A stretch of 64,000 nucleotides of DNA, taken from assembly GCA_050084515.1 (NCBI GenBank), contig CM114271.1:38316001-38380000 (forward strand). Reading direction: 5' to 3'. Below the pieces are notes generated by a model that saw nothing but the letters and a program-made list of their open reading frames with translations, did no database searches and was not told the DNA's origin. Origin of the DNA: Blasia pusilla (Eukaryota). This document shows, one piece after another, positions 1-31,085 of the stretch (its first letter is position 1; every line of letters begins with the position of its first letter). A program made the position numbers and the translations under genes.

Positions 1-973
1 CTTCTCGAAGTGGATCGAGTCGGTTGCATTGCCTGACAAAGCGAGTGAGGGAGTAGCTTATGCCTTCCTTGATAGGGTGCTGAGTCATTATGGTGCAACG
101 GCTGAGGTGTTGACAGACCAGAGTATCGAGTTTCACGGTGAGTTCCATACCTTGTGTGATCAGGCATTGATCGACCACTGTACAACTTTGCGAGATCATC
201 CTGAGGCGGATGGATTAGCAGAGAGAGTTGTGCAGACGATGAACAGGGGTTTACGCAAGTATGGCTTGCAGAGAGGTCACCTAAGAGATTGGGACCTCCA
301 GTTGCCATGGTTGGCGATGGGATACAGATTCAGTAGGCAGGCATCCTTAGCGTCTTTTTCACCGTACTTGCTACTTTATGGCCAAGAGCCAGATTTACCT
401 GCGGCCATTAGTCGAGATGCTGATGAGGTGCCGGACCTTGATGACCCAGATGTATGGATGCGAGCATGTTCTTAGAGGGCTGAGTTGTTTTGGAGAATGA
501 TGCCCATGGCGTTCGAGAACTTGGCAATTGTGTAGCATCGGGATACGTTGAGGTATGCGACTATTCGGGATGGTGGTTATCGACCAACTATCTGGAGGTT
601 TCATCAAGGAGATTATGTCTACTTGCAGCAGACGGCACCGATGACGTTGGATGTGAGTGCAAGGCGCACTATCCTAAGAGTGCGTGATGTTTTGCCATTT
701 GGTGTTCTCTTGCTGGAGGGACGCGATGGTATGGTATGGAAGGACCATATGTGTAATTGTGCACCATGTCACCTTCCTAACATTAATGGCACAGTAGATC
801 TGAGCTCAGCAATAGTTCCTGCACGCTTGCGTTGTATGTTGTGTGGTTTTGCTCGTGGTGCGGCCACAATTCTAGTCTGCGATGGATGTTCGAGAGGTTG
901 GCATATGGCATGTCTGACGCCACCTCACACTAGGGTTCCTCGAGGACGATGGATGTATCCCAGATATACATAG
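1..973 (+). pseudogene. Gypsy integrase C-terminal half plus C4HC3 PHD finger (833-967), with in-frame stops
   Basis: ORFs 29-475 and 548-973 are in the same frame, broken by TAG stops. CMLC..CDGC..H..C..WMYPRY, with the last two Cys apparently mutated TGT>TAT. Confidence 0.88.
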
Positions 974-1159
974 AGGAGATACTAGGTAGGTTTTGATTCC
1001 GAATTTTTCTATGACATGGATGACAGGAAGCGACTAACGATGGGGCCACATGAGCACCCGGCCTTTTTGCTCTTAGTGTCCTAGAGATGTATGTCGTGGT
1101 AGGTAGGGATAGATGGCTATCTGGAGTTAGAGGGACCTAACCACCAACTAGGAGGGCGA

Positions 1160-1282
1160 TTGGAGATATTTTGATACTTCTCCCTGTGTGTATGGATGCC
1201 ATGAGTTAGCATGGGATCGTCTGTGTTTGTGTGTGTGTTCGATGACAGTGATGTATGTTATATAGCGATGTGTATGCGCACA
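1160..1282 (+). repeat. B repeat, copy 1, of element 1
   Basis: ttggagatattttgatacttctc...gatgtgtatgcgcaca recurs at 1801-1907; preceded by the purine tract aggagggcga (1150-1159). Confidence 0.9.
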
Positions 1283-1287
1283 AAAAT

Positions 1288-1800
1288 TGTCATGATTGTT
1301 AGGATAGATTGGTGGGATCTAGCAGAGTGTCTACACGAGTAGTGGAGGACATGCCCAAGAGGTCGACGATGACTTGTTGAGGCCCCGAGAAACCTGAGAG
1401 AGCAGGTTTCCCCTTCGTTTTGGCTCATTTGGAGCCATATAGAGAAACTTACTATTTCGGATAAGTTTCCATATTGGGGATAGTTGACTTTCTACTTTTG
1501 GAAGTGGCACTTGACCCGCTACAGTAGGTCAAGAGCCAAGGAGGTGACCTGCGAGCATAGGTTACCGTTGAGAGGGCTTGGGAGAGGGAAGGGGGTATAC
1601 CTCCAAGAGAGAGAGCTTGAGAGCTCATTCTCTCTTTGTTGAACCTCTCGGCATAAGGCGGCGGAGTTATGGTCCCTTGCCTTGTGAGTGTAACCCAAGC
1701 CTCTCAATAGGAGAGTGGGTTTGGTTTGACATGAGAGAGAGTGCACACCTTTGAGAGCTATGGTGTGAGATGGTATAGAGAGAAATTGGATCTTATTTTA
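1288..1800 (+). repeat. A repeat (LTR-like segment) of element 1
   Basis: Starts TGTCATGA like A of element 2, lies between the two B copies, and is homologous to 25310-25500. Confidence 0.8.
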
Positions 1801-1907
1801 TTGGAGATATTTTGGTACTTCTCGCCTCTGTATATGGATGTTATGAGTTAGCATGGGATCGTTTGTGTTTTTGTGTGTGTTCGATGACAACGATGTGTAT
1901 GCGCACA
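1801..1907 (+). repeat. B repeat, copy 2 (element terminus), of element 1
   Basis: Direct repeat of 1160-1282 with a short internal deletion; ends in CA. Confidence 0.9.
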
Positions 1908-1909
1908 AC

Positions 1910-4900
1910 AACTCCATAGTGTTGCAGGTTGAGCAGATGTGTTGTAGGCTAGAATAATTGCAAATAAACGGTGCAGTGCAGAACCTATACGGATCATAAA
2001 AGCTTCTTGAAAGCAAGAGAACACTTCCCTATTATCCTCAAGAAGTCCCAATTCAATAGCAGCCTCCTTGAATATTGGACATAATATTCCATTGACAGTT
2101 CTCAAGCATTCGTATGTGGTTGCTCCTCGAACATGATGGAGGAGTAATCTCAACCAATGACATTCTCCTTCACCTATGAAGAAGTGAAATAAATCAGCTC
2201 ATCCCAATATATAAATACATTACTTTAGATAGTGGCACACAAAAGCAAATGTACTAAAAAAACTTCAAAGTATTCATTTGGATGAGTAAGGTATAAGCGG
2301 CTAATAGGATGGCCACAACCGAAGGAAAATCTCTATATAGATATTATGGAGCAGTCGAGTCACATAGATTGGTTGCAAACCATTCTGTCAAAGTCGTCTC
2401 TCTATTTACTTGTAGAACATCTTGAGGAGCGTCAACATCGTTGAAGTAGACTATTTGCTACTCTGGAAGATGAATTGCTAATCGCACAATACTTGGAAGT
2501 TCAGTATGTATGCTAAACTTAAAGAGTCGCCAACATGCCTCTGAAGAAGAAATATATCTGGAAAAATAATAATTCCAAGTGTTGAAGTAAGGAGAATGAA
2601 GTAATGTTGGAAAATAAAATATAATGCATATCAATCAATTAGCAAAATCATACCCTATATCAAGATATGACGTCGTCTCGTCAACGACGTCGATTGCGTT
2701 GGATGTATCCATATCCTTTGACAACTTAAATGACACAGCATCAGATCCCTTACATACGTATTTGTATAAGTACTTCACAGCAGAAACCATACTTATGATC
2801 TCCAAATTAATGTGACAATCAAAGAGCATGCACAACAAAGGATTGTAGGGCACAACCCAACGATTATCCAACGAATGTTCACGCTTAACTATCGCCCTCC
2901 CATTCTCCAATCTACAAAAACACAATGACATATCAAGACCTCATTACATTGGCGTCATGTGCTATACAATAATAAAGATAAGCCGTGATGAAAAGATCCT
3001 TACATACGATAGATCGGTTATCCATCTTCTGTCTCAATAGTACTGGCCGCAAAAGGTTTGGGATAATCTTTTGTACACTTTTTTGTTTCCTTATCCATAC
3101 ATGGTGCATTTGGATTTAATGCTCCACATGGATCGTGAAGCATGAAATTAGCAACAATAGAATGTAACCTTGGATGGGTAGATTTTTCAGGGATTTGAGC
3201 CAAAATAATATTATCATAAGCATAAGTGGTACGTGGTTTATCCTCACGCCCTAAAATAATAAGCATGTGCACATGCGGCGGACCTCTTTTTTGGAATTCC
3301 ACCACATGGATGCATCCTACAACTTGACCCAATATTTGCTTGTCAATGATAAGTCGTAAAAAATCCTTTTTTTTCTTCTCAAAAACTCGTACAAGTAAAT
3401 CTGGTCGATCTGCAACTGATTGACCAAGTAATAAGGCTAAGGTAATCTCCTCCAACTTAGGATTGCATGTCATGGTCAAAAAGTAGTCAAGTTTTCCCAA
3501 ATGTCTTACAATCGCCATTGCATCCTAATAACATTGATGTATATGACGTAATCCTCCAGTAAAAGAAGAAAGTAATACAATGCGTCCCCCAAACCTTCAA
3601 CTATCCACATCATATCGATGCATGGCATCCTTAACACCTTGGTATAATTCAGCCCTTAATTCTTTTGATTCAAATGAACCCATGATAATCGTTGCATTTC
3701 TAAAGTGGCATAGAGGTCAAACATATATTCTTGAGTAAGTTGAACGAACCGCAATTACCGATTGTCATCTTCCCCTCCAATCCGCGTTTGAAGTCGAAAA
3801 CATGCAAATTTCAAGGCCGTTACACTCTGTGTTCTTCTTTCCTCAATAGCATCACCATCAACTCTCTCGCCATCTATGCCTTCATCTGAATGTTCAATGT
3901 GTCCCTCTTCCCCATGAATAACATGGTCCGATTGTTGGCATCCAAAACTCTTCAACGGTATCCCAAGATGCCAACCTGCTTCACTGTAGATAAATAATAA
4001 AACAAAGTGTAATAGAATATATGCTTCATTGAGGTCAGATACACGCTTCACTCCTCCTCCATGCAATTGTACAATTATATCACGATGGTCAATGTGTTCA
4101 CTTCCATCGCGCAGCAAAATAGCATCAACCTCATAAGTAGTTGGTAAGTTATAACGCTTCACATCCATACCTCTCTTACTTGCCTTGAGAATGATCCGTA
4201 TATTCAGATCACTTGCTTCATACTCCATATGACGAAAGATCTTCACATATAGATTGCATTGATGCAACATGTCTTGCAGCCCTTTCAAGATGTCTATGTT
4301 AAGATCAGAAGATCTAAACATAACTCTTCCTTGATTCTCCGATTCATTCACAGTATCATGACTGTAGAGTTAAGAAAATTGGGGATGGCCCCCTATATCA
4401 AGATGTAAAGGTTCAATAGAATGATAGATGTCGCCTTGGACCCTAAAGTGTCAAGTACCACCAATTTTTTCATTTACATGCACTCAAGTAGATGCAAGTT
4501 GAAGTGCAGAATTGTAAGCTTCAACATGTGTAAGAAGATGAAGACTTCTAGGACCAACACTGGAAATCAACATTTTTAGAAATGGAGGAGACGATTTCAA
4601 GAGGGGTAATTGTGTTCTCCCATGGCCACAACACATGCCATATGGTGAATCATTAAACTTATAACCTTTGACCTTTTCACATTTCCAATGCAAGGCACGA
4701 CATGACGGGGATATCTCTATCATAGAACCCAATGTATGACGACCGCTAGTACGATTCAAACTCCTTTGTAATCGCAACTTCCTAATATCACTTTCTTGGA
4801 AGTTTGGTCTCCTTGCAAGATTGACAAATGTATTTACTCTAACAACCCTATGAATAGTAGATAACGGGCGAATTGTAGAAGCATTTGGTATAGTGAACTT

Positions 4901-5500
4901 TGAGGAGGTAACACAACTCCACTAACGGTAGAAGACACATCCCCAACATGGGGAAGAGTCCAAGAATTGTCGACGATATCATGTTCACCCTCATTAGGAA
5001 GAGTGGTGGATAACTCAACTCGTGGTGTTACATGAGTATTTGGCCCGATTGTGGATGAATTCTCGATAGCTTCATACAGTCCACAATTAGGTAACTCAAG
5101 TCTTGGCAAAATATAAATGTCCTTTGTGGATTGAAGATGGGCTTCTTGATTTTCTCCCACCATTACTCCATCCTCAATGGAAGGCATGGGTAAACATGAA
5201 CATATTTAGAAAAATGGGTTTGAGTGAGGATATACATACAAAACAAATATGAACAATCAATGGGTTTGAGTGAGGATATATAAACCTTATGAATTGACTA
5301 TCAATAGTCGGAAGCTCCATAGTTGGAATAGTTGGAATGTTCTCAACTTCAACATGAAGCGGTTTCCTTCTTTTCCTATACTCTCGATAATATGTCCTCT
5401 TTTTTTTCTTTGAGAACTTCCATTTTATGAGCGCGTATAACACCTTTTCATTTTTGGGCTTCGTTGAATACAACCTTCCAAAAATCACATATATCAACAA
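1910..5500 (-). pseudogene. Helitron Rep/Helicase gene: N-terminal and HUH Rep region, intron-containing, decayed; the helicase part is cut off by element 1
   Basis: CCGHG..LP, YNSAL, RYNLPT, TMTCNP, DRPDL..RVF, VEFQKRGPPHVHMLI, DNRWVVPYNP, CHINLE, AVKYLYKYV.KG.D, YISSSEACWRL, LRLLL.HV.GAT..LRTV.G. GT..AG intron at about 2559-2653. Confidence 0.92.
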
Positions 5501-5794
5501 GATTCAAGGGAATCGAAAGTCTGGAACAACACTAGAATTTCAGAACAAAGAAATTTAGATGTCATTATTATAAAGGATGGAAATTTGGACTCAAAAAATG
5601 TTCGCCAATGAATTGAACTTACGTTGGAGATATTTCAAGGAGTGGTTTGTCTTCAATGTTTGTTTGTTGTGCTAAAATTTCCTTACAACGTGTACGCCTT
5701 TTCTGTTGTGCATTCGCACACATCAATTTTCGAAAGTCACGCAAATCTGTAAGATTTGACGGAAGAGGAAGTATGTGCAACAATTAATTCAGGG

Positions 5795-6147
5795 TGTCAT
5801 GACCATCCGGATTATGTCGTAGAGTATAGTGTGCTAGTAGAGGCCATACCTTATGTAGGGCCGTAGTGTCTAGGTAGAAATGCGGTTTCATCCATAGGGT
5901 TGGGGGTTACTCCGTTGAGGGTGACTTTTCCAGTAGGGCCCGCTCTTAGGTTGGAGGACATAGTGTGGAGTGCACTCAAAGAACAATTAGTTCTTTGAGT
6001 TGAGCCTGTTGCGTTGGGAGTTAGCCTTGGTAGTGAGTAGAGCTCTTGGCTATGGTGGTTCCCGCAAGCTTCGACCTGGATTCTCCCATCGTGGAGTGGG
6101 TTTGGCTCGATTGTATATGATTCTATATATTTTTTATGACAGTAGGT
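5795..6147 (+). repeat. A repeat, copy 1 (5' LTR-like) of element 2
   Basis: Direct repeat of 15781-16134, about 21 differences in about 353 bp by hand count. TGTCAT...ATGACA inverted ends (5795-6141). Confidence 0.95.
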
Positions 6148-7700
6148 CTTTCATGGATTTCACTCAAAGAACTAGAGTAGATCGATGGTAGCTTTGATCG
6201 TGGATCAGTAGGATCTCGTTATGGCTGATTGTGTACTCAACCGTGGATGTTTGTGGCTTGTGGCCTATGTTGGAGGTGGGAATCTGGTGCATGGTTGGTT
6301 GGGAAAGAAGTGCCTTGCTAAGAGCTTTCCAACGCGCTTTAGATCGCCGGATTTTGTCAAGGCAGTTTGAAGTTATCAAAGATTGAAGATTCTGGTTCGT
6401 GTTCGACGGTTTTCTGATGTGAAGAGCTTGGACTGCGGAAGCTCTGTTCAAGTTCATCCAGATCGGGTGAGAGGTTCCTATTGCTACCTGTATTGTGATC
6501 TCATGTGAAGCTATCTGCTTGAGTGTGTGGAGCGTTGCGGATTTCTGTGTGCATGAATCTGGGCGGAAGTGTTGTCGGATTTGCGATTTTGGAGGTGTAT
6601 GGACAACAAGTTTGTCTGATTTTTAGCTCGGAGCACAGAGCTCAATTGTAGCTGATATTTTGAGGAGAGATAGCTATGGTGATCAATTGAATTCTGGTAA
6701 AAAAATTTTCAATTTTGGTTGAGGATTTGTGGAGTAATTGCTGATCGAAATTTTGCGGACTAGCTCAAGGTCTAGCTACTATGGACAACAGATCCGAGGG
6801 GCTGGTTGGTTGGTGACTCGTCTGTTGTTGGAGACGCCTATCCCATTGGGGGCGCCCTGGTTGGGCCTCTCTCCATAGAAAAGGATGGCGAAGTGTGGCA
6901 AACGGGGCATGGCTCGAGCATTTCTCGGCGGTTTGAGGCTTCCAGGCTTCCAGGCAACTCGTGGTAGCTCGGAGCGAGTGGGCGTGAGAGATGGAGTAAG
7001 GAGCAAGGAGCAAGGAGCAAGCAAGCAAGCTTGCTTGCTTGGGCGTGAGGCAGTTTTTGCAAGATTTGTGAGTTGAGTGTTGCATTACTGGTCACCCATC
7101 TTTGGGCTATTCTGCCTGGAAGATGCTTAACTACTGAGTTCTTAACTATGCCAATGTACACACATGTGTAGCTCATTTGGTGTTGTTCGGAGATATGTTA
7201 GGCGCTTTATGCATCTCGGGTTTTTGGTTGATGGACCTATAGCGCATAGTACGGTGTAGCCTCTCCATGAAGGTGATATTTTCATGTGCTGCTAGTGCGA
7301 CTAGCACGTCATCGACCAGCGGCGGAGTAGCTATTGCATTAGAATTGTGTGGTGGGTTCTGTGGATTCAGGGGGCACCACGTTTGATGGATTGTGTTACC
7401 TTGATTTCCATTTGCGATTGGAGGGTTGTCGTTGGACTTCTTGTGTTTGGATCCCCTCCATCGTTGCTTCTTGCTTGCGCGCCCATTGTTAGGGTTGACG
7501 CTGATTTCCAGAGTAGTTTTACTCCTGTGTGCTACCGGTAGTGAGGCTAGAGTGATGACCAGTAGACCATGGGAGGCTTCTTGTGGTGATGACATGTTAA
7601 GTTGCCTACACCCATAGCTAGTAGAGCTAGAATAATACAACGACATCGACGTCACTTGGTTACTTAGTGGTGGTGATTTGGTGGTGGTGCGGCATCGGCG

Positions 7701-9300
7701 TTGGTCATCACGGAGCTGGCTGGTGGTCTGGTTGGGGACCGTGGTGCGGACGGTGGTGGTTTTACATGGAGTGGATTGAGGTATCGGCTACCTTTTCCAC
7801 TTCCGACGGTTGACGAAGAGGAGGACGGGGATGTTCCAAACACCGAGTCTTCTACGTTGTTATCGAGTGTTGCAGCTCCATTGATTTGGGACATGGACAA
7901 AATATATAGGGCCATGAAGGGCCCACAACGATACTCGAGTGCAGCGGGCACCATTGAAGTGGAGGACTTCATTCAGGAGTTTGATACGTGGTGTGATATG
8001 CAGATGTTGCGGAACGCCACGTTGTTTACACCCTTCTTGGCTTGGAAGGGGTTGTTTAAGCACTTGGAGGGACCACCCATGGATGATTACCATGAGTTTA
8101 GGAGGGACCATGCTGCTGAGATTGAGGTGTGGAGACAATATTGGTCTCCAGGCTATGTGTCTATCACCCATGGTGGTAGTGGTAGTAGTGCTCTTACTGT
8201 GTCAACCAGCCCGACATTGAGTGGTGCGAGTACGAGCCGGAGTGGGGGTCCTAGTGGAGGTACCAGTGGGGGTACTAGTGGAGGTACTAGTGCTCCACCA
8301 TTCATTCAGCCCGGTTGTAGAGTTCTTCAAGAATTAAGAAGAACTATCAGGGAGTGAAGATAGAGAAGTTGAGGAGTCTTCAGGAATTTGAGCGAAAGAT
8401 TGGTGAGAGTCTTCGTGAGGCATACACTTGTATGTGACGCTTGATTTAAGTTACCCAGGGTGTGAATGAGGCTCAGGCAGTCTAGTTTTGGTATGGGATC
8501 TTGGACAAAGACTTGCGCTGCAGGGTACGTGATGCTACTCTTATGAGTGATGATTCACCCACATTGGCCCATGTGTTTGCTCTATTTGAGAAGATTGAGC
8601 TTAACATGGTGGAGGAGAGAGTGGTGACATCCGCATTCAGTAGGGATACAACTACTACTTCTCGTGTTCAGCAGTCCACCTCACAGTCTCGTAGTAGTGG
8701 TGGTGGTAGTCGTAGTGCAAGTCGTGGGGGGTACATACGACCTCAGTCAAGTCCTAGAGGGACACCTGCGTAGCGACCATTGCCTTCATTTGCTGCCCCT
8801 GCAGCAAGGACAGTCATGTTGGACATGTGGAGGTGATCATGATAGGAGGTTTTGTTCCCAAGAGGATGGGAGACAAACTTTGGAGGATGGGCCTCAGTCG
8901 GCGCCAACTCAGTGTGATCATTGCGGGAGACCAAGTCATCCTCGAGACCGTTGCTTTGATCTTCATCCATATTTGCGATCAGGCCGCGGCCGTGGTGGAG
9001 TAGCTCCAAGAGGCCGAGGTGGCAAGGGTGGTAGAGGTGGACCAGTGGTTGGAGAGCCTACGGTGGCTACCCCTACCACTACAACAGAGTCAGCTATGGC
9101 TTCCAGGATTGAGCAGTTGGTGCAGAGGTTGGCTATTATGGCTGGTATACGGCATAGAGCAGGTTCGGGAGCAGGGGCTTCCACCTCTTATGGAGGGGAT
9201 GATCTCTCTTATATGGCGAGTGCAGCACAGGTTGAGGCATCAACTGCGATTCTGAGAGGAGCCACTGAGGCGTCGAGCCACGTGGTGCTACTGTGGATTT
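7701..9300 (+). pseudogene. gag: capsid-like region, two zinc knuckles, RGG tract; frameshifted
   Basis: VEDFIQEFDTWC; CWTCGGDHDRRFC and CDHCGRPSHPRDRC knuckles; RSGRGRGG..RGRGGKGGRGG. Confidence 0.8.
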
Positions 9301-9759
9301 GGACCCATAGAGGGGTGAGGCTGGGAAGCAGGCTAGGCTTCCCCAGTCATTCTTGTTGTCTGAGGTGCTTAGGACTCCATCCATGGTTCCTACGCAACCT
9401 ATTGAGCCTACAGTGGGGACTGAGGCATCTACATCGCGTGTAGTAGACACGGATGTAGCATCCAGTGTAGTATTATGGATGGCAACTTCAGTGTTGGGAT
9501 CCCCATTGTTTTCAGCCACTGAGTTGATGGCCTTAGGAGTTGACTTAGCTCATGTATTTCAGCTAGCAGCCACGTTGTGTGAACGTGGGAGTGTTACTGC
9601 TACACGTGTTGAGGTGGATGAGGGTGTTACGGTGGAGCGACCCTCTATGTTAGGTGTAGCATTGAGTACTAGTGCTACTTGGCATGCATCAGCGGTGAAG
9701 ATGGAGGCATTACCAGCTAGACCAGCCATTGATCGTGAGAGGCTTACACCTGGTGTATG

Positions 9760-10150
9760 TATGTTGGACAACCGCAGTGGGATATTCCGATTGGTGAGTC
9801 CTACAGGACAGGTGTATAGACCAGATAGAGTCTTGTTAGACTCTGGTGCACAACCTTTGATGTTGGGAAAGGCGGCATGTATTGGTTTGGGTATTCGGAG
9901 GTCAAAGCTTAAGCCTTGCCCATTCTAGATTCAAACATCACTTGGAGGAGCCAATGATAGGTCTCAATTCATGACGCGGGAGAAGTTGTCTGTACATTTG
10001 AGATCGGATCATGCGACTGATAGCTCTTGGTTGGGAGTACTTGTAGTGGTCACATCAGCCGAGTTGTATGATGTACTAGTTGGAGGAGCAGTATTATACC
10101 CGATGGGTTTTCAGATGGACTACTGGACTGAGATAGCGTCTTATAGATCT
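9760..10150 (+). pseudogene. Retropepsin-type aspartic protease
   Basis: VLLDSGAQ catalytic motif and downstream YDVLVGG..L motif. Confidence 0.85.
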
Positions 10151-10566
10151 GGTTGGCAGTCCGGGGATGGACTTATGAGCAAGGTTCCTGTGAGGTGTAT
10201 TTATGGGCTCGACTAGGAGGGTCTTCCCCAACAATGTTAGCATCCGTGGCTCGTTTTAGTGCAATAGTCACTTGGCTAGGAGACTTTTTGGAGGGTAATC
10301 TTTCTGCTATGGATTCTCCTGTGCATGAGGAGGTAGAGGAGGTCCCTATTTTTGCAGTAGTGGCATCCTCATCGTTGGATGTCCCACTTTGGAGTTCAAG
10401 CGGTTCACTACGGCAGGAGGCTGATCGCCTAGTGCAGGAGGCTTGGTGTGAGGCCATTATACCTCACGAGGAAGAGGAGGCCCCACGGCGGACTCCTACT
10501 TCTGGTCCAATTGGGTTATCCCCTCTGGATACTACACCCATTGTATGGCAGTATCCGCCGGAGGGC

Positions 10567-11502
10567 ATTTGTGTGTTAGATCTCTTTGGTGGGATTAGCA
10601 TTGGTTTGGCTGCAGTATTGCAGGCCGGTATTCTTGTGCGGAGATATGTGTATGTGGAGTGAGATGAGACGGCCCAGAGAGTCTCATCCCGACATATTGG
10701 TCAGTTGATGCGGAGATATCTTGAGTTGTTGCCACCATCAGCTATTCGTGGGTACCCGCGTGCTTTGCCGTCACACATTGCATTGTTGGGGGCGTAGGAC
10801 CTTGAGAGGGTTGGTCCTATGGATTTGGTGATTTCTAGATGGCCATGTCAGGGTCATAGACCTGTTGGTCGTAGTGAGGGATTACCCGACCCTAGGTCTC
10901 AATTGTTTTGGGAGATGTTACGGGTGTTACGACATCTTCAGGTTCATCAGGTACGTGCTCCAGCTTACATTCTGGAGAATGTTCCATTGTTGGGTGACAC
11001 TCAGACCCGGATGATGGCGAGTGTTCATGAGATGCGGTCTTGGATTGGACCAATGGTGTTGTTGGATGTAGCGCGAGTTGGCTCGCGTGCACATCGTCCA
11101 CGCTTGTGGTGGACAAACTTGTTGCCTAGGGAGGTTCTACGTCGAGCATATGATGTAGTGCAATGGGATCCTTGCCTTGTAGTGGATAGTATCTTGGATA
11201 CTGGGCAACTTCCTCAAGTGGTGAGGGTTATAGATCGGTCATCCATGGCAGTGGTGAACCGTGTGGGCCAGCCTAGGATGGCACTACCCATATTTGTGAG
11301 TTTTCCCTCATCACATGCCTACAAGGAAGGTGGTCCTGGGCTTGTATGGGATTCTCATGTGCGACAGTTGGTGGAGCCTAACGCTGATGAGAGAGAGCGT
11401 GCAATAGGATTTGCTATTGGTGTGACAGCGGTTGCTTCCATTTATGAGGCTTCACAACGTCATGTGTTGTGTCAGGCCATGGACCTGAATTGTTTGACCT
11501 AG
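10567..11502 (+). pseudogene. C5 cytosine DNA methyltransferase domain (DNMT3-like) inside the pol polyprotein, two internal stops
   Basis: One reading frame with motifs in order: I VLDLFGGI, II YVYVE, IV GPMDLVISRWPCQG, RSQLFWEMLRVL, VI YILENV, VIII LDVARVGSRAHRPRLWWTNL, IX ERERAIGF...T, X QRHVLCQAMD. Confidence 0.9.
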
Positions 11503-11889
11503 ATTTTGAGTCTTGGTATGGCCGAGCAACGTTGACTTTGCACTATGTCTATGGGTCTTCCACCCCTTGTGATGAGCTTGATGGCTACCGGGACGGTAGA
11601 GACATCGATTGGGAGCGAAGAGAATAGTATTTTGCATCCTTGGAGTAAATGGGATGTAATGGCTGGGCATGTGGAGTTGGTTGCTCATGCTGGTGGAGGA
11701 GTTATTTTCTCAGATGATGGTGTAGCTAAGGATGTATCATGTTGTGAGGGGGTTGCATAGCACCCAATGGCGTCGTCCTCTCCCTCTAGTGTGCCAATGG
11801 AGGAGACTTGGGAGCCATTACTTGGGCCCAAGCTTACGGGAGGTGAGAAACGACGCTTGACACAGTTCCTACTTGCTTATAGTAGTTGT

Positions 11890-12685
11890 TTTGCCTTTGC
11901 ATGAAGGAGTTGGGTGCTTTGGTTGGACCCGGTATACGGATTCCTTTGGCTAGTGATACGCCAATCTTCCTTCGTCCCTACCGATATAGTGATATGGAGA
12001 AGGACCTGATTCAGAGTAGGACGTTGGACCTTTTGGAGGCTGGACTAGTGGAGTTGTCGCATGGAGAGTATGCATGAGCCACGGTCATGCCTACTAAAAA
12101 GGATGTGCATGGCAACTACACGGATAGGCGGATGTGTGGAGATTACCATCCTATCAATCGGTAGACCAAGGCCGATATGTATGCCATGCCTACACCTCTT
12201 GAGATCTTTGATGTGGTGGGACAGGCAAAGATTTTTAGTACTTTGGATCTTCGGGCAGGATACCATCAGTTGCCGATTCGAGAGAGTGACAAGGCCAAGA
12301 CAGCATTTTGGGGTGTCAACTCTCATGGCAAGGATTTTTTGTACCAGTGGAAATTCTTACCCTTTGGGTTGAAGAATGCACCTGCCGAGTTTCAGAGAGT
12401 GATGGACATGATCCTAGCAGGGTTGGATTTTGTTCGGTGTTTCATTGATGATATCTTGGTGTTCAGTAATATGGTGGAGGAGCATCAGATACATTTGCAT
12501 ATTATGTTTGAGCGGTTGAAATCTCATGGTCTAGGTTTGCATCCAGGAAAGTGTAAGTTCTTCCATGAGGATGTTGAGTACTTGGGTCATGTGATCTATC
12601 CAGATGGTTTGGGAGTTCAGCAAGCAAAGGTGGAGGCTATTGCACTTTTTTCTCGTCCGGTAGATGTGAGTAGAGTTCGGGCATT
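11890..12685 (+). pseudogene. Gypsy-type reverse transcriptase
   Basis: PYRYS, RMCGDY, FSTLDLRAGYHQ, KTAF, LPFGLKNAPAEFQR, FIDDILVFS, KCKF..EYLGH. Confidence 0.95.
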
Positions 12686-13302
12686 TTTGTGCGCATACAT
12701 ATCGCTACACAACATACATCGCTGGTCACATCTACACCACACAACACCGATCTTCTCCACACACGGGTCGATCCACACATGTACAAAAATCAACTCATAC
12801 ATATACATGGAGATCACACAACAAACATAAAGAGTAGTAAAAACGGCACACCCGGCCTAAAACTCCACTCCTCAATCTACATCGATATATCGAGCCTCGT
12901 CCACCCTGTGCTATCAAGGAATCCGGACGCTAGCACCCTCGTCCTCTCTCACATACATACAAGGGAGGTGCTCCAACAGCCCAACATGAGAAAGATGGCT
13001 TAGGAAAGCCATCTTCCTCTCTTATATAGGGTTGGGAAGAGCCAAAAGGCTCTTCCCCTAAAAATAGCCCTCTCCTTGGTAACCTGCGCGCACAGGTTAC
13101 CAAGGGCGGGTGACCTGGTCAACAAGTCACCCGGATGTGAAAGACCTCAACATGAAAGTTGTCAGAAACGACGTTCCTGACACAATGGACCTATCTTCAA
13201 CCTCATCCGACACCATGGGACAAAGTTACACTCAAGATAGTTCGCTTGCTCCTACGCCCTATCCACGATAGATCTCGACCTATCGACTACTCAGATGTGA
13301 CA
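12686..13302 (-). mobile_element. Solo A+B terminal-repeat unit of a related family, inserted antisense at the RT/RNase H connection
   Basis: GCATT duplicated at 12681-12685 and 13303-13307; removing the insert restores VRAFMGLVNYY. Minus strand reads TGTCACA...gcgatatgtatgcgcaCA-AA, matching the B end of element 1. Confidence 0.88.
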
Positions 13303-13860
13303 GCATTCATGGGATTGGTGAACTACTATCAGAGGTATGTGAAGGGACTTAGTGTTGTGGCAAAGCCTTTGAATCAATTGTTGAAATCAGATTAGGAGTG
13401 GAAATGGGGAGATGATCAGGAGAGAGCTTTTGTGGAGCTCAAGGCCCAATTGGTGGCGGCGCCTATCTTGAGGAGACCTATTAGAGGACGCCCATTTCAG
13501 TTATACACTGATTGGAGTAGGTTGGGACTTGGAGCGGTGTTGACACAACATGATGATGAGCACATGGAGTTTTTGGTGGCCTATGCAAGTCGTTCGAATA
13601 ATGCAGCGGAGTCGCGCTATAGTTCATATGAGGGAGAGTGCTTGGCAGTAGTGTGGGTTGTGGCACACTTTAGCTGTTACTTGTTTGGCACACAGTTTAC
13701 CCTTGTTACTCATCACCAGCCGCTCAAGTGGTTGATGGAGTCTGACAAGCTTACAGGGAAGCTTGCACGGTGGGCTCTTATCTTATAGGAGTATGACTTC
13801 CAGGTGGTACATAGACCTAGAGTTGCCAACCTTGATGCTGATGGGTTGAGTACATGTACT
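13303..13860 (+). pseudogene. RT connection and RNase H
   Basis: FMGLVNYY, LYTDWS..GLGAVL, YASRS, YSSYEGECLAVVW, HQPLKWL, NLDADGLS. Confidence 0.92.
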
Positions 13861-14199
13861 AGCCAAGAGGATGCAACTGGGGCTAGATGGCATGGCGAGG
13901 TTGATGAGGAGATGGTGCCAGGTTGGCATGCATCTGCCTTTTTATGTTGGTTAGGGGTGGACTCTAGTATGGAGGACCACATGACATCTTACTCTAGTCA
14001 GAGGGTAGATGGCCAGCCTTCAGATCCTAAGGTTGGAGATGGTGGTACGGATCAGCGTGATATTCATGATGATGCGTTGGTGTTGGAGTTCCTACGGACC
14101 AGTAGGGTGCCAAGTATAGTGAGTGCCAAGGAGCGAGACCGTGTTCTTCAACGTGCTAAGAGGTATCGATTGGAGGGAACACATATTCTCCGTGTGTAG

Positions 14200-15508
14200 G
14201 AGGATGGTAGAGTATGAGTAGTGCCGCATTTGGCTCAGAGAGAGCGCATTGTGCGACATGCCCATGAGGAGTTGGGACATTTTGGGGTAAAGCGTACGTA
14301 TAGCTTACTCCTTGGTCAGTATTGGTGGCATGGCATGCATACTCAAGTGCAGCAGTTGGTGTCACGTTGTATGGTTTGTGACCGGATGAGGGCATCATTC
14401 AATGCCCCTACACCATAGTTACAACCTTGCCTATTATGGGGTTGGGTTACCGTTGGAATGTGGACTTTGCGGGACCGTTACCGTTGACTGTAGGACATCA
14501 TCGATATGTGTTGGTGATGGTGGAGCACTTCTCCAAGTGGATTGAGTTGGTGGCATTTCCTGACAAGGCAAGTGAGGGAACGGCGTATGCGTTTCTTGAT
14601 AGAGTGCTTAGTCATTTTGGTGCATCAGTTGAAGTGTTGACCGACCAGGGTACAAAGTTTCAGGGTGAGTTTCAGGTCTTGTGTGACAAGGCGTTGATTG
14701 ATCATCGGACCACATCTCGAGATCATCCAGAGGCGGATGGTTTGGTTGAGCATGTGGTTAAGACGATGAAGAGGGCATTGCGCAAGTATGGCCTACAGAA
14801 GGGGCATCTTGGAGACTGGGATATTCAATTGCTATGGTTAGCCATGGGGTATAGGTTCAGTCGCCAAGCATCCTTGGTTTCCTTCTCACCTTATTTTCTA
14901 TTATACGGCCAAGATCCAAACTTGCCTGCATCAATTCGTCGGGAGTCTAGTAAGGTGGTGAACCTTGACGACCCAGAGATGTGGATGAGAGTGTGTTCTT
15001 AGTGTGCAGAGCTCTTTCGGAGAGTTATGCCAACAACCTTCGAGAATCTTGCCATTGCTCAACACAGGGATACGTTGCGGTATGCAACCATTCGAGGTGG
15101 AGGTTATCGACCATTGATTCATAGTTCCATGTGGGGGACTATGTCTATTTGTAGCATATTGCACCGACAACGTTGGATGTGACGGCAGGTCGCACTATTT
15201 TACGAGTGCGCTAGGTGTTAGCTTCTGGAGTTCTCATGTTGGAGGGTCGTGATGGAGTTGTTTGGAAGGACCATGTGCGTAATTGTGGGCCATGTCATCT
15301 TCCAAATGTGGATGGTAATGTTGACCCAAGCTTAGCCATGATACGTGCTAGCTTGAGGTGTATGTTGTGTGGGTCTGCTAGTAACGCAGCCCGTATGTTG
15401 GTGTGTGATCGGTGTTCTAGGGGTTGGCACATGATGTGTTTGACTCCACGTATGGATGTTGTTCCTATTGGAAGGTGGGTTTGTCCTCGATGTACTTACG
15501 AGGGATAG
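14200..15508 (+). pseudogene. DDE integrase (HHCC plus catalytic core) with C-terminal PHD finger (15359-15493)
   Basis: HAHEELGHFG..CMVC, VDFAGPL, LTDQG, DGLVE; then CMLC-x-CDRC-x-H..C-x-WVCPRC. Confidence 0.92.
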
Positions 15509-15674
15509 ATGACTTGATCTTTGCATGATATGGATTACACATGTGCAACTAACGATGGGGCAACCTAGCACCCGGCCTTCTGATTTTTGCACCCACGAAG
15601 GTGTATAACATGTAGTAGATGTATAGGGCTACCTAGGAGTTAGAGGGACCTAATCGCCAGTTAGGGGAGCAAGT

Positions 15675-15778
15675 TGTGGTACACTTGTGTTTGTGGATGC
15701 TCTCGTCTATGTTATATATGTATATGAGTATGGTATGTCAGCGATGTATGTTGTATGACGATGTGGATTCGCACGACA
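15675..15778 (+). repeat. B repeat, copy 1, of element 2, preceded by a polypurine-tract-like aggggagcaag (15663-15673)
   Basis: tgtggtacacttgtg...gcacgaca recurs at 16133-16235. Confidence 0.93.
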
Positions 15779-15780
15779 AC

Positions 15781-16134
15781 TGTCATGACCATACGGATTA
15801 TGTCGTAGAGTATAGTGTGCTAGTAGATGCCATACCTTATGTAGGGGCCGTAGTGTCTAGGTAGAGATGCGGTTTCATACATAGGGTTTGGGGTTACTCT
15901 GTTGAGGATGACTTTTCCAATAGGGCCCGCTCTTAGGTTGGAGGATATAGTGTGGAATGCACTCAAAGAACAGTTAGTTCTTTGAGTTGAGCCTGTTGCG
16001 TTGGGAGTTAGCTTTGGTAGTGAGTAGAGCTCTTGGCTATGGTGGCTCCCGCAAGCTTTGACCTGGATTCTCCCATCGTGGAGTGGGTTTGGCTCGATTG
16101 TGTGTGATTCTATACGTGTTTTATGACAATAGGT
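15781..16134 (+). repeat. A repeat, copy 2, of element 2
   Basis: Direct repeat of 5795-6147. Confidence 0.95.
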
Positions 16135-16235
16135 GGTACACTTGTGTTTGTGGATGCTCTCGTCTATGTTATATATGTATGTGAGTATGGTATGTCAGCG
16201 ATGTATGTTGTATGACGATGTAGATTTGCACGACA
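16133..16235 (+). repeat. B repeat, copy 2 (element terminus), of element 2
   Basis: Direct repeat of 15676-15778, followed by the AGGG TSD. Confidence 0.93.
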
Positions 16236-17044
16236 AGGGGCAATGAATGATTAGGGTATATACATGCAAAAGACTGGCATGAAAGCCATCATCGTGGAAA
16301 TAGAAATAAGGTATTAAAAAAGTTCCTTACATCGGAGACGTGTTCTTATATACTTCAATTTGTCTCTTGGAAATTAGTTGAGGAATTGGGACATTTGTGA
16401 GAACACCCAACAGTAATCTCTCCACGTTTGGTAACAACCCCTCCAAACTTGCCATATGCATAACACAATGCAGAAATATTAATTTAAAAATATTTTTAAA
16501 TACCAAAAGATAATTATGTAACTAAAATTTGAAAAAGTAGGAGAGTAGAGGGGTTTTCCTTTTTTTTGGAGGGAAAAAAATAAGGAAAAAAAGAGCATAT
16601 TCGACATCCCAAACCTATCCCTTCCCGAACCCGACCCTACGACCCACTCCGCCGTTCAATGGAGATGTAATGGCCAGATGTAATCGGCCGTTGGATGGCA
16701 ACCTAACCCAAATCGGCGGAGGTGGCGGTCCGCCATGGCAAGGTCTCCGCCGGCCCTAGGCAACTCCGCAGTCGCCGCGGGCCCTTGGCGCCTCGGGCCC
16801 CCTTCCCCATCGACCTTCCCCCTCCCCATTCGGGCAATCGACACTCCTATCCAAATGGGGAGGGGGAGCAAAACTCGCTCTCCCCTCCACTTTCCTTCCC
16901 CTCTCGATCGCCTCTTCTCAACTACTTCGGGGTCTGCTCTCTTTTCGACTCTCAATCGCCTCCACTCAGCAACTTCGGGGTTTGCTTTCTCTTCGACTCG
17001 GGCTCGTAAGGCTTCGGCTTGTGGTCTCTCTCCGCTTTGCTGTC

Positions 17045-19108: not shown

Positions 19109-22100
19109 TATTGGATTCTCAACATCCACTCCTCTGAGCACCAGTGATTTGATCGGCCCCCTTGTATGAGGAAAAGCCTAGATCGATGGTTCCGACTTAG
19201 ACGTTGAAGGAGTCATAGTAATATGACGTAGGTGGTTTACGGAGTAGCGTTACTAGGTTTATCTAACCCTATATTGCATCAGGGTGCGGAGCACCCTGAT
19301 GCATCGCGGGGGTCCGGGTTTAGGGTCAAGACGACGCGGGGGTCCGGCAAAATTTTTCTATTAATAGAAATGAAGAAAAATAGGTAAAAACCCTAGTTTT
19401 CCCGAGTAGTCAAATAGTCGGGAGCCGCAGCGGTAGCGCATTCTCGTATGTCGAGTTATCTCCCAGTTCAGGTTCCATCGAAGCTCTTCTGTGAGCGCAC
19501 GGACGGACTAGGCCACTTTGTATCTCTAAGTTTTTGTAAAGATTTCAGTGATTTAGTCACTTTCTGTTTTCTCACATGGTATTAGAGCAGTAGGTTTTTC
19601 CAGTATTTTGTATCTGGCGATCTAGTGTGTTTGCACAAAATCTTGAGAGATGGCTACTTCTTCGTCAGTTCGTGCTCGCCCCTCCTGCATTTGGGTGAAG
19701 GGAAGTTAGATGGGTCTAACTATACGTTGTGGAAGTTCAAAATGAGAACTGTTCTCGAATCATTTGAGATCTGGGAAACGGCCACAGGGGTCGATTCAAA
19801 TCCACAAGCTAGTTTGAGTTCTGCAAGTTCATCTTCATCTGAGGATATCGATCCTGTTGTATTATTGGCATGGAGACGTAGAAACGCTGATGCTCTATAT
19901 GCGATTGTCACGAATGTAACTGATTTTGTCATGACTCTCATTCAACATACAACCACTGCTGCTAAGGCGTGGAACATTTTGAAGAATCAGTATGAAACGA
20001 GGAATGAGACTCGGATTCAAAATCTGGAGAATCAGCTTACGTTCGAGAAATTTTCAGAAGGAGAAAGCGCGGAGCAATTTTTGACAAGGATCAAGAATCT
20101 TCAAGATCAGATGGCGTCCTTGGGAATTTCAAAGTCTAGCGAAGATTTGGCACGCCGATGCATAAGGATTTTGCCTCCAAGGTATGACAGTTTGGTCACT
20201 GCACTGAATACTCAAGTAAGACCCACGCCGCTTACTTTTGAACAATTTAGTGCAATGTTGGTAGAAGAGGAAATGCGCTTCAAAGCAAGAGAGGGAAGTG
20301 ACGCAAACATTTTCGCCAACGTCTGAGAGAGGTAGAAATCAGGATTACAGTTCAAATGTCAAGAAGAAATTTCCAAGAAAAGCCTTCAAATGCTTTTATT
20401 GTGGTAAGCTAGGTCATCTTATCAAAGATTGTAGGAAGAGAAGTCAGGATGAGAAGAACGGTTGTTTAAGACCTAAGAAGGAGTTTGGAAAGTCAGAGAA
20501 CCAGGGGAGAACATGAAGTAGATGCTTGGGTAGCAATAGAAGAGTTCATACAGCGGAACATACCACTAAGACAAAGAGTGAAGATTCATGGGTGCTCGAT
20601 AGTGGAGCATCTAGGCATATGACCAATCATAAGGATTGGTATAGCTCTTACATCCTCTCTGAGCCCATCGTTATTCTTGTTGGGAATAATGCAAAGTGCC
20701 CAGTAGAAGGGAAAGGCACAATTTCTTTAGTCTCACAAAAAGGAGATGAAAAGAAGTTAACGATGTACAAGACGTACGAGTTGAAGCGAAATTTGATTTC
20801 AGTGGCAGTATTATGTGATCGTGACCTAGAAGTTCGTTTCAAGAAAACTGGAGCAGTCATTGAGGATACCAATGGGAAAGTAGTGGGTGAAGGTATACGA
20901 CGTGGAAATATCTACGAGTTGTATGCTTTCACGACAAGTGTAGGTACAGATCTTAGTAGCAGTAAGTTGTGGCATGAAAGATTTGGTCACCTAAGCTTTC
21001 CCTTACTAAGTCAGATGCAGAAATCTGGCATGGTTGCTGATTTACCAACAATTTCTGGAGTGTCGGATACTTGTGAAGCTTGTATGATGGGCAAGCAACA
21101 CCAACAACCATTTCCACAAGAGTCCAGCAATAGGGCAAAGGCTCCTCTAGAGTTGATACATGCTGACCTCTGTGGTAAAATGAGAACGGTGGCATTAGGT
21201 GGTTCTTCCTACTTCTTTTTAATTGTCGACGATTATAGTAGGAAGATGTGGGTGTATTTCCTTCGTGATAAGGCAAGTGCTTTTGGAAAATTTAAAGTAT
21301 GGCACAAGCTGGTTGAGAATGAGACAGGAAAGAAGGTACAAAAGCTTCGCACCGATCGAGGAGGAGAATTCTTATCAGAATTCAACAAATATTTGGGAGA
21401 GCATGGAATCAATCGACAGATTAACCACGGCAGCACATACACCACAACAAAATGGAGTTGTTGAGCGTCAAAATCGTAAATGAGTGGTGGAGATGGCAAG
21501 ATGTATGATGAAAGCAAAAGGTTTGTGAAGGCTTTTTGGGTGAAAGCTATTATCTTGCCAGTATACATTCTAAATAGAAGTGCTACCAAGTCGGTGCAAG
21601 GCATGACTCCTCATCAATCATACTCGGGTAAAGTACCATCGGTCCAACATTTCAGGACTTTTGGTAGTGAGTGTTTTGTACATATTCAAGCATCGAGGAC
21701 CAAGTTGGAGTCCAAGAGCAGGAAGTGCATCTTTATGGGATACTGATGATGAGTCTAAAGCTTATCGCCTTTGGTGTCCTGAGGAAAAGAAGATGCTTGT
21801 GAGTCGTGACGTGGTGTTCGAGAACGAGCCTCGTCAAGTGGCGGATATCGATGGTCCGTCCACATTATCATCAAACGAAGAGATAACCCACCAGAGCACA
21901 CCACAGATGTTTACACGAGATCATGAAGAAGAAGATTTTGGTGATGATTACAAAGAGCAACCTGCTCTTCCACTACGGTCGTCATACCCTAAGTGGATAA
22001 AGCAGCTCTTGGATGGTAAGGATCCACCAGCAACTGATGAAGTTGTTACACATCCAAGGAGATCCAAGAGACTAGAGGAGCAGAATAGAGCTTCCGCACA

Positions 22101-24121: not shown

Positions 24122-24329
24122 TACTAAATCGATGGATCTCCCTCCTAGAACGGATCTAATTGTCTTCCAGGACAAAATTCAAAAATTTGTTAAAGAAATT
24201 GTTTTCACATCGGAAGGAACAAAACCCTAAGAATCCCCATCCAATAGCTTCCAAAAATCCCATCCAACGGTTAAGAATTGCAGAGCTCACACACCAGACG
24301 ACCCGAAATGTTGCATTTTAGTTGGGCCA

Positions 24330-25129: not shown

Positions 25130-25645
25130 GATGAGGAGGTGAGAAACATATGTGCAAGTTTTCCCTGGTATGGGCCCACTTAGGGCTATTTGCATTTAGT
25201 TCCCTATTTCTTACATAATTAACTTCTCGATATGTAAGGTATCTCTTGATCCATTAAAGAGGGTTAGGGTTAGGGAGGTAATAGAGACCTAACCTATATG
25301 TACATGTCATCAAGGAGAGGTCTTGGAAAAGGGAGGGGGTATATCTCAAAGAGAGCTTGGGAGCTTGTTCTCTCTTTGTTGAACCTCTTTCCATGAGGCG
25401 GAAGAGCTATATTGTCTCTTGCCTTGTGATTAACCTTGAGCCTATTATTAGAAGAATGGATTTGGTTTGACATAGGAGAGAGCCTTGTGATGTGATACTA
25501 TTGTTGCAAACCAGGTTTATAAGAAACATTTTGGTAAATGATTCTGTGCGTGTTTGGATTCCATGATTAACTCGGGAATCTGTGTTGTTAAGTTTGTTGC
25601 ATGGTGAAAACAACATATGTTGTATAACAATATATATGTGCACGA
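25130..25645 (+). mobile_element. Degenerate solo A+B unit of the split-repeat Gypsy family (left boundary approximate)
   Basis: 25310-25500 aligns with 1565-1750 (ttctctctttgttgaacctct, ccttgtga, tttggtttgacat). 25575-25644 resembles the B end (..tatgttgtataacaatatatatgtgcac). Confidence 0.7.
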
Positions 25646-26138
25646 GAACTCCCTTGGTCATTATATACATGTTGAGTCATGTATAGAGTGCCACATCAAG
25701 TTGGTCAACCGTTAGAATTCTACTATGTCGATGGTGTAAGAGATCAATGGGATATTTGGCTATAATTTTTTCATGAGTGATCAGACGAGGTTCGTTACAC
25801 CTCCTTTACGACACGATCGATCATTTTTACAAACTCCCTCCTTTTATTTTGGGTCAATTACTTGTTGGCCTAGTCAACGATTATTTGATTCTTTTGGTAA
25901 CATGTGTGCGTTGGGTACTTGTTCTGTTTACATTTTAAGGGAGGGGTCTTAGGTTATTCCGAAGGGTATGAGAGAAGAGGACATGGTTTCAAACAACCTT
26001 TTTTCTCATGTTGAGGCTGGGAAATACTCTTCCTTGTAGGGTTTATTAGGAGCTAGGGCATTAGAGTTTGGATTCTTTCATGATGGAGGGTAGATATAGA
26101 TTGGTTGAGATATATACTATCACGAATATAATTGATAA

Positions 26139-30868: not shown

Positions 30869-31085
30869 CGTTACACGGTACTAACCAGTGTGCATCAGCT
30901 TGGGGCAGTGAAGCTATGCTTCTGAATATGACGAACACCTCCGGTGTTTCCGGATTTTCAATTTCAGCAAAAATCGCTGCTCGTTGCACGGCACTGACCA
31001 GTGTGCAGCAGCTCGGGGCAGTGAAGTTATGCTTCTGGATGTGATGAACACCTCCGGTGTCACCAGATTTTCATTTTCAGCAAGA
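30869..31085. repeat. Tandem duplication, about 113 bp period
   Basis: cacgg.act.accagtgtgca.cagct.ggggcagtgaag...gaacacctccggtgt...gattttca.tttcagcaa occurs twice. Confidence 0.85.

Follow-up and report, generated by a model that had tools for sequence, protein, structure and literature searches.

How does a retroelement that encodes a DDE integrase come to lie between split direct repeats rather than between two matching long terminal repeats (LTRs)? This question is raised by a 10.4-kb element at positions 5795–16235 of a 64,000-nucleotide (nt) stretch of Blasia pusilla DNA (NCBI GenBank assembly GCA_050084515.1, contig CM114271.1, positions 38,316,001 to 38,380,000 of the forward strand), hereafter called the window. 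The element is read on the forward (+) strand, as are all its features given below, and its repeats follow the order A1-interior-B1-A2-B2. This order proved to be common to a lineage of Ty3/Gypsy-type elements. On balance, we favor an explanation in which the integrated copy is a circular permutation of an otherwise normal complementary DNA (cDNA).

A repeat search and the raw sequence showed that A1 (5795–6147) and A2 (15781–16134) are 94% identical over 354 nt, and that the two B copies (15676–15779 and 16133–16236) are 97% identical over 104 nt. Repeats of 104–354 nt at 94–97% identity cannot be due to chance. Read base by base, the element starts with TGTCATG at 5795. B1, which extends from 15674 to 15778 according to the repeat search, the sequence and its relatives, ends in …CGACA with an integrase-type CA at 15777–15778. 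It is followed by a 2-nt spacer AC (15779–15780) and by A2, which again starts with TGTCATG at 15781. The terminal copy B2 (16133–16235) also ends in …CGACA, its CA being at 16234–16235. The tetranucleotide AGGG stands immediately before A1 (5791–5794) and immediately after B2 (16236–16239), and is absent after A2. An alignment with 15 relatives placed the true end of A1, …GGATTTCA, at 6162 (feature 5795–6162), beyond the part shared with A2, which stops at 6147; this is the end of the unique 5′ (U5) region. In the same alignment, A2 lacks its last approximately 15 nt and B2 its first approximately 5 nt, a deletion exactly at A2|B2. DNA contigs of the same species carry the full joint (6160/6161 to 15670–15674). 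The first-pass annotation, which was made from the letters of the window, had already delimited A1, B1, A2 and B2 to within 1 base, and its placement of the AGGG duplication after B2 rather than A2 could be read directly at 16236–16239.

The window holds a second example. Positions 1–1907 (+ strand) are the 3′ end of another element (“element 1”), consisting of the integrase C-terminus, a PHD finger, a polypurine tract, and B (1160–1282), A (1288–1800) and B (1801–1907). The B-A-B order that had been proposed for it at 1160–1907 is borne out by an alignment of 1159–1254 with 1800–1896 at 90%. Positions 1–1295, a span that starts in the integrase, includes B and reaches the first bases of A, align with 14528–15788 at 71%.

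Independent copies were obtained from metagenomes. Fifteen integrase-PHD proteins were aligned, 80 metagenome loci (L numbers) were retrieved, and A and B were marked in them by blastn against 12 reference pairs. Fifty-three of the 80 loci, each with at least 700 bp after the integrase match, were classed, the class of L025 being set by hand. Polypurine tract-B-A-B was found in 26 of them, at 19 distinct sites as judged by the 3′ flank, and polypurine tract-B followed by unrelated flank in 17 (14 distinct sites, by the same measure). The others were B-A followed by something else (three loci: L023 and L024, rearranged, and L049, truncated), B cut by another insertion (one locus), and loci in which B was undetected with the reference pairs used (six). 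Whole elements were of the B-A-B type at three loci and of the A-interior-B type at four. B was always shorter than A, with 73–129 bp against 282–513 bp in the reference units. The reverse form A-B-A-interior-B, with B ahead of the 5′ A, was seen at none of 11 5′ ends (about ten of them independent), and the polypurine tract abutted A at none of the 46 loci with B1 found. The distant relatives L040, L077 and L039 possess the palindrome CA-NN-TG described below, and their contigs end before the position of a second B. The A…B-A-B layout is thus seen in many independent copies and is a lineage trait, not an accident of the window copy. The duplication of B, on which the first-pass annotation had relied, is supported by the occurrence of the second B in independent contigs from several samples.

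The A-interior-B copies may have more than one origin. L025 (B-A-B) and L047 (single B) share one site, with flanks 99.07% identical over 7.6 kb; the A-interior-B copies must therefore include some that arose by deletion between B1 and B2. Such copies could also be dead-end direct insertions. The interiors of L025 and L047 are only 91% identical despite the likeness of their flanks, which indicates either that the element mutates much faster than its surroundings or that gene conversion with other copies has occurred. In the rearranged loci (L023, 3246–3878; L024, 1297–1929), polypurine tract-B-A and primer-site sequence are followed by the first approximately 180 nt of A in inverted orientation, hinged on a hairpin. 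Such an inversion would arise if plus-strand synthesis copied an overlong primer, or through a palindrome-mediated rearrangement.

Target-site duplications were examined in nine units. In eight of them, a perfect 4-bp duplication flanks the TG that opens A and the CA that closes the terminal B: the window element (AGGG), L008 (AAGG), L042 (CATA), L074 (CATA), L005 (TACA), L047 (TGTG), L079 (ATGC), and a solo unit nested in the window element (ATGC). In the ninth, L001, three of the four bases match (GGTT/TGTT). The probability of eight perfect duplications among nine is about 2e-11, even allowing for nine choices of boundary. The element ends are TG…CA, or …AA in place of CA in the subfamily of element 1. 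A duplication directly after A2, the arrangement of a conventional LTR pair, was looked for and found at none of the 26 B-A-B ends. The tally thus agrees with the first-pass annotation in putting the duplications outside A1 and the terminal B.

The landmarks of reverse transcription lie at other repeat boundaries. A polypurine tract, AGGGGAGCAAG (15663–15673), directly abuts B1, as read from the sequence and from relatives. A purine run adjoins the start of B1 in all 28 B-A-B units examined (26 loci and the two window elements), in contexts such as …TAGGGGGGCGA|GTTGTGG… and …ATAGGGGGGCA|GTTTGG…. A putative self-priming primer-binding site, ACTCAAAGAACTA (6162–6174), abuts the end of A1 and is complementary to 5988–6000. 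This segment, the putative self-primer, is the right arm of a hairpin inside A (5975–6000), composed of CTCAAAGAAC at 5975–5984, a 5-nt loop, and GTTCTTTGAG at 5990–5999. A TATA-like box lies about 30 nt upstream and reads TATAAAG in better-preserved relatives. Directly after the last base of A1 comes CTCAAAGAAC(TATG), the exact complement of a stretch within A, about 30 nt downstream of the TATAAAG box, and a second copy of the primer site, inside A, pairs with the primer arm as the hairpin. The complement in the window is 13 nt long and exact, which was reached by none of 1000 shuffles. Complements of 9–16 nt were present at six of ten 5′ ends, including L008 (16 nt), L029, L079 and L001 (11 nt each), and L032 (9 nt); shuffles reached them 0–2 times in 1000 for five ends and 21 times in 1000 for the sixth (9 nt). 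At the remaining four ends, the site is mutated or too diverged for an exact match. Elements of the L074 type show, by eye, the same self-priming design in other letters (AAAATCCA versus TGGATTTT). No tRNA genes were found in the window, and no tRNA-type primer site was seen by eye.

These landmarks and the integrase ends define two different registers. With the polypurine tract directly before B1 and the self-priming site directly after A1, the LTR predicted by the logic of reverse transcription is B+A, with B1 as the start of the unique 3′ (U3) region, and the cDNA would be [B-A]-interior-[B-A]. By the logic of the integrase, the unit opens with the first base of A and closes with the last base of B. 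At B1|A2, the integrase ends stand back to back around a 2-nt spacer, as in GACA-GC-TGTC (the spacer may also be AC or AT), and the sequence in relatives, GACAGCTGTC, is a 10-nt palindrome. At A2|B2, the last bases before the primer site meet the first bases after the polypurine tract. The repeats of reverse transcription and the integrase ends are out of register by the length of B, approximately 100 bp. Given these two registers, the integrated copy corresponds to a circular permutation of the predicted cDNA. A non-standard scheme of reverse transcription had been suggested in the first-pass annotation. That suggestion is not supported, since the polypurine tract at B1 and the self-priming site at A1 look standard; what is unusual most probably happens after the cDNA is complete and before it integrates.

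Two stranded RNA-seq runs (X22 and X23), which carry the same species label as the best DNA source, were placed on 5500–16500 at 90% likeness. They indicate that the family is transcribed today. Sense RNA covers the whole interior, B1 and A. Depth was 111–182 over 15042–15775, which includes the polypurine tract and B1 (111–163 over 15409–15775), 28–39 over A2 (15776–16142), and 0.37–0.47 over B2 and the flank (16143–16500). The A|B joint was found in only one RNA read. Since the template RNA lacks both B2 and the A|B joint, both must be re-made in each transposition cycle.

Other features of the RNA reads may be recorded here. In some reads (16 in X22 and 27 in X23), 14020 is linked to 15028 and 1007 nt of the integrase region are missing, with nine other letters between the two sides in X23; these reads suggest that a deletion derivative is expressed or that a spliced form exists. 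The window copy differs from the reads of its relatives mostly by transitions (in X22, G>A 243, C>T 198, A>G 184 and T>C 169). B was considered as a specially GU-rich downstream element for polyadenylation; as its G+T content (0.60–0.71) is not distinctive against that of A (0.57–0.65), this was discarded as evidence, and such a role is no more than a speculation on what use B2 might have.

The A|B joint itself is variable. In an alignment of 16 copies, three of about 13 insertions or deletions fall exactly on A|B, where 0.09 would be expected (Poisson P about 1e-4). They are an insertion of 19 nt of templated appearance in L007, an insertion of 1 nt in L031, and the deletion of approximately 20 nt in the window copy, which shows GT microhomology. 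DNA contigs of the window’s species provide three further variants of the joint, differing by 1–4 nt. The joint is thus made imprecisely. Some of the variation arises after insertion, because an AG/AA difference is present among contigs of one site (L014, L016 and L021).

The element has the coding order gag-protease-DNA methyltransferase (DNMT)-reverse transcriptase-RNase H-integrase-PHD finger, in a frame broken by many stop codons. A degenerate gag-like open frame with two CCHC zinc knuckles (8628–9443) and an aspartic protease region with a DSG motif (9311–9928) were recognized by eye, and neither gave a Pfam match. Between the protease and the reverse transcriptase lies a C-5 cytosine DNMT domain (10147–11502; PF00145 in 10798–11502, E 2.4e-6, 27.6 bits against a cut-off of 22). 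Its translation contains FxGxG-, PCQ- and ENV-like motifs, which we take to be those of the methyltransferase. The reverse transcriptase (12165–12680; PF00078, E 4e-30) is interrupted at 12680/12681 by the nested insertion. It is followed by RNase H (13396–13788; PF17917, E 4e-33) and by an integrase with an HHCC (H2C2) zinc domain and a DDE core (14218–15002; PF00665, E 9e-13). A PHD finger at the C-terminus of the integrase (15215–15508) was identified from its translation and from PF00628 in relatives. It sits where chromoviruses carry a chromodomain, and is present in both window elements (700–960 in element 1). The plus strand of the element is rich in G and T, with a GC skew of +0.11 to +0.27 across 6001–16000.

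Among PDB entries, the Ty3 Gag-Pol polyprotein matches best (7q5b, E 2e-94), followed by the Ty3 reverse transcriptase (4ol8, E 3e-73). No tyrosine recombinase (PF00589) was detected in ten open reading frames of the window or in three long relatives, which have the same domain set as the window element. Integrase relatives at 80–85% identity carry PF00665 and PF00628, and PF00628 is widespread among the integrase relatives. Named relatives with the PHD finger, some of them also with the DNMT, come from Calypogeia (80–81%), Riccia, Sphagnum, Marchantia, Klebsormidium and Closterium, those of Klebsormidium nitens being 51–59% identical; many further integrase-PHD relatives are metagenome proteins. 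The DNMT precedes the reverse transcriptase in the window element and in relative P0028, and lies between RNase H and integrase in relatives P0096 and P0106. This variable position suggests two placements or two captures. The window element is a decayed copy of a streptophyte family of the Ty3/Gypsy type with a DDE integrase. A Gypsy-type element with such an integrase is what the first-pass annotation had recognized, and that part stands on PF00665, the H2C2 domain, the lack of PF00589 and the proximity to Ty3; its DNMT and PHD finger had been overlooked.

How might these elements pass from a normal cDNA to the integrated form? We think it somewhat probable that the ends of the cDNA are joined and that the integrase opens an internal site, so that the integrated copy is a circular permutation. 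Transcription would start inside A1 and end inside A2, giving an RNA that runs from the repeat region R through the primer site, coding region, polypurine tract and B1 into the first part of A2, and that lacks B2. The minus strand would be self-primed, as in Tf1, at the site abutting the end of A1, and the plus strand would start at the polypurine tract abutting B1. An ordinary cDNA of the form [B-A]-interior-[B-A] would result. In each of its LTRs, the integrase ends (the TG that opens A and the CA that closes B) would stand back to back as the palindrome CA-NN-TG. The cDNA termini, namely the U5 end and the U3 start, would be joined either in a 2-LTR circle or by end-joining after cleavage. 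The DDE integrase would then open the palindrome in the LTR that adjoins the primer site, inserting the DNA with a 4-bp duplication and yielding A-interior-B-A|B. The joined-end intermediate, the cleavage at the internal site and the preference for one palindrome are what we infer from the anatomy. There is a precedent in retroviruses: cleavage of 2-LTR circles at their palindromic LTR-LTR junction is reported for the integrases of foamy virus (PMC1180852) and, in vitro, of HIV-1 (PMC1905944). We hold more tentatively that the whole of this lineage of DDE-integrase LTR elements, in charophytes, liverworts and mosses, must pass through a joined-end, 2-LTR-circle-like DNA intermediate, with its attachment sites about 100 bp inside the LTR as an inherited palindrome.

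Several points weigh against the joined-end explanation. A 2-LTR circle has two identical palindromes, and A-B-A-interior-B would also be expected; with equal use of both palindromes, its absence from 11 ends has a probability of about 0.001. The explanation needs either an unexplained preference for one palindrome or a fast loss of A-B-A-interior-B by recombination between its A copies. It is possible that this form, its A copies being close together, collapses to the common A-interior-B, that only the palindrome approximately 100 bp from a DNA end is used, or that another route of reverse transcription builds the product directly. The 17 of 53 loci that end in polypurine tract-B and then flank could be dead-end direct insertions rather than deletions, and such insertions are not predicted by the simple model. 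The precision of most A|B joints is compatible with a templated process as well. As for the RNA, the reads stem from family members of at least 90% likeness and not from this locus; only 12–17 of about 4,300–4,400 placed reads per run were at least 99% alike to the window copy. The start of transcription is not pinned: 25 fragments start at 5956, in X22 only, and this pile-up, which coincides with the TATA-like box and could reflect the edge of an alignment, was not used as evidence. Finally, the circle, the linear cDNA and the cleaved intermediate are inferred and none was observed.

The missing A-B-A-interior-B form and the precision of most joints would favor a deterministic process, in which reverse transcription alone builds A-interior-B-A-B by an extra template switch and plus-strand priming at B|A, and the integrase then uses the true termini. 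We nevertheless consider this unlikely. Nothing purine-rich or primer-like is found at B|A, the polypurine tract abuts B and not A, and the RNA contains no template for A|B. The exact match of the repeat boundaries to the polypurine tract and the primer site would have to be a coincidence, and no workable set of strand transfers could be constructed. The schemes that were tried and rejected (early cleavage of a one-LTR intermediate, long 5′ flaps, and re-priming at the polypurine tract) give only A-interior-B or a plain LTR pair. A route without a circle would lead to the same product as the joined-end explanation, only the order of the steps being different. Here the integrase would make a double-strand cut at the left-LTR palindrome of the linear cDNA, the freed B of approximately 100 bp would be the right-end donor and the start of A the left-end donor, and host end-joining would seal the free cDNA termini. 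All of the anatomy cited above applies equally to this route. B is always the short arm and the left palindrome is the one nearest a DNA end, which could explain why it alone is used. The chromosome, however, would stay broken until repair, no precedent is known to us, and the route itself does not explain the sparing of the right-hand palindrome. For these reasons, we regard it as rather improbable.

Two further explanations conflict with the copies themselves. The layout is the one described in figure legends for PAT/Ngaro-type elements (PMC7192593, PMC5890265), and a circular cDNA might be inserted by a tyrosine recombinase supplied in trans. This is very hard to reconcile with the DDE integrase, the inverted ends of the TG…CA type and the lack of PF00589 in the proteins searched, and it is contradicted by the 4-bp duplications in eight of nine units. 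The window copy is indeed decayed: its frame has many stops, another unit is nested in it, and its joint carries a deletion, as would suit an ordinary element (LTR = A or A+B) altered after its insertion by local duplication or deletion, or a misassembly. Such an origin is highly improbable, given the same layout at 19 distinct sites, in several samples and in two window elements only 71% alike, no B-A-B end among 26 with a duplication directly after A2, and no polypurine tract abutting A among 46 loci. The joined-end explanation therefore remains the one we favor.

Other repeats are present in the window. The nested solo unit, of the A+B type, is 618 bp long (12685–13302, – strand), belongs to a related subfamily and has the ends TGTCAC…GCGCACAAAA. 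It lies inside the reverse transcriptase region and is flanked by ATGC at 13303–13306 and 12681–12684. It has its own TATA box and, at the same place as in A, a different hairpin. It is absent from the expressed copies, since RNA and DNA joints skip 12680–13303. A fragment at 25305–25650 resembles the 3′ part of the A of element 1 and then a B-like end, …GTGCACGAGAA. It directly follows TTAGGG-like repeats at approximately 25262–25277, and no duplication is evident. Direct repeats of approximately 470 bp (19109–19577 and 23693–24122) are 89% alike and about 4.55 kb apart, and this pair is probably another LTR element. Tandem repeats comprise two copies of a 113-bp unit (30869–31094) and a longer array with units on the scale of 70 bp (62743–63271).

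The A…B-A-B layout in a DNMT-carrying Gypsy element is already in print and was never explained. De Mendoza et al. 2018 (PMC5890265) described KnitGypsy-Dnmt3 of Klebsormidium nitens as a Gypsy polyprotein with a C-5 DNA methyltransferase. In that report, the Fig. 4c legend notes a DIRS-like repeat structure with Gypsy domains in the Klebsormidium Gypsy-Dnmt3. The window element is a further member. In the main text of the report, the PHD finger has no occurrence, and the parts examined contain nothing on duplications, primer site, polypurine tract, joint or mechanism, while the supplements may hold more. A 2026 preprint names “streptophytes (Gypsy-DNMT3)” and, in the portion available, does not discuss the repeats. 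In the literature searched, from which subscription journals and supplements were outside the scope, this legend was the only description found of the layout together with an integrase. The duplications, the two registers, the RNA evidence and the host range are new here, and turn the remark in a legend into a testable mechanism.

An old question is whether circular or joined-end DNA of a retroelement can serve as a substrate for integration. In retroviruses, such DNA is usually regarded as not being one. For one plant-lineage Gypsy family, dozens of fossil insertions argue by their anatomy that the landmarks of reverse transcription cannot have given rise directly to the integrated copy that carries them. 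If the joined-end explanation is true, a DNA form regarded as a dead end in retroviruses would be a productive substrate here, and a DIRS-like layout would have arisen independently with a different enzyme. The groups in which the family occurs include bryophytes, some of which are genetically tractable, so that the mechanism can be put to the test. There are also consequences for annotation. As had been anticipated, standard LTR finders are likely to mis-delimit the element. Pairing A1 with A2 sets the wrong bounds, cuts off B2, misplaces the duplication, and miscounts the solo LTRs (A+B) and the common A-interior-B derivatives. The DNMT and PHD finger make the family of interest for the epigenetic conflict between transposons and their hosts.

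Among known systems, the window element resembles the streptophyte Gypsy-DNMT3 elements in the DNMT within Pol (PF00145 in the window reading frame and in relatives) and in its A-coding-B-A-B repeats. In contrast to the setting of KnitGypsy-Dnmt3, its closest named relatives are liverwort and moss proteins. Elements of the DIRS order share the A1…B1-A2-B2 layout in their PAT/Ngaro types, and TOC1 is a DIRS-order element with split direct repeats. DIRS-order PAT/Ngaro elements are not known to make a target-site duplication of the DDE type. The DIRS order uses a tyrosine recombinase, whereas the window family has a DDE integrase, TG…CA ends and 4-bp duplications, with Ty3 as its nearest solved structure. 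In a published model (PMC7192593), the internal B1|A2 of PAT/Ngaro carries both element termini joined, and the outer ends are missing from the transcripts.

As in Gypsy elements of the Tf1/Sushi and Tcn1 types, the site for the primer beside the 5′ repeat pairs with sequence within the repeat and not with a tRNA. Self-priming has been predicted by REXdb for the Tcn1 clade of non-seed plants (PMC6317226), and Tcn1-like elements are known from mosses and lycophytes (PMC6317226, PMC2864245). Unlike Tf1, Sushi and Tcn1, which have plain LTR pairs, the window family has a PHD finger instead of a chromodomain and a hairpin of the primer arm. It resembles Ty3/Gypsy elements in the order protease-reverse transcriptase-RNase H-integrase with a DDE integrase, to which the DNMT is added, and in its short target-site duplication and TG…CA ends. 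It differs from them in having no two identical bounding LTRs: the polypurine tract abuts B1, the primer site abuts A1, and the integrated element opens with A and closes with B. The closest parallel to the proposed cleavage is that of retroviral 2-LTR-circle junctions, where, according to the two reports on foamy virus and HIV-1 (PMC1180852, PMC1905944), a DDE integrase likewise acts on back-to-back CA…TG in a molecule with joined ends. In retroviruses, this palindrome is formed by the joined cDNA termini, whereas in the present family each LTR inherits it as an internal sequence with a 2-nt spacer, and the termini are joined elsewhere, at A2|B2.

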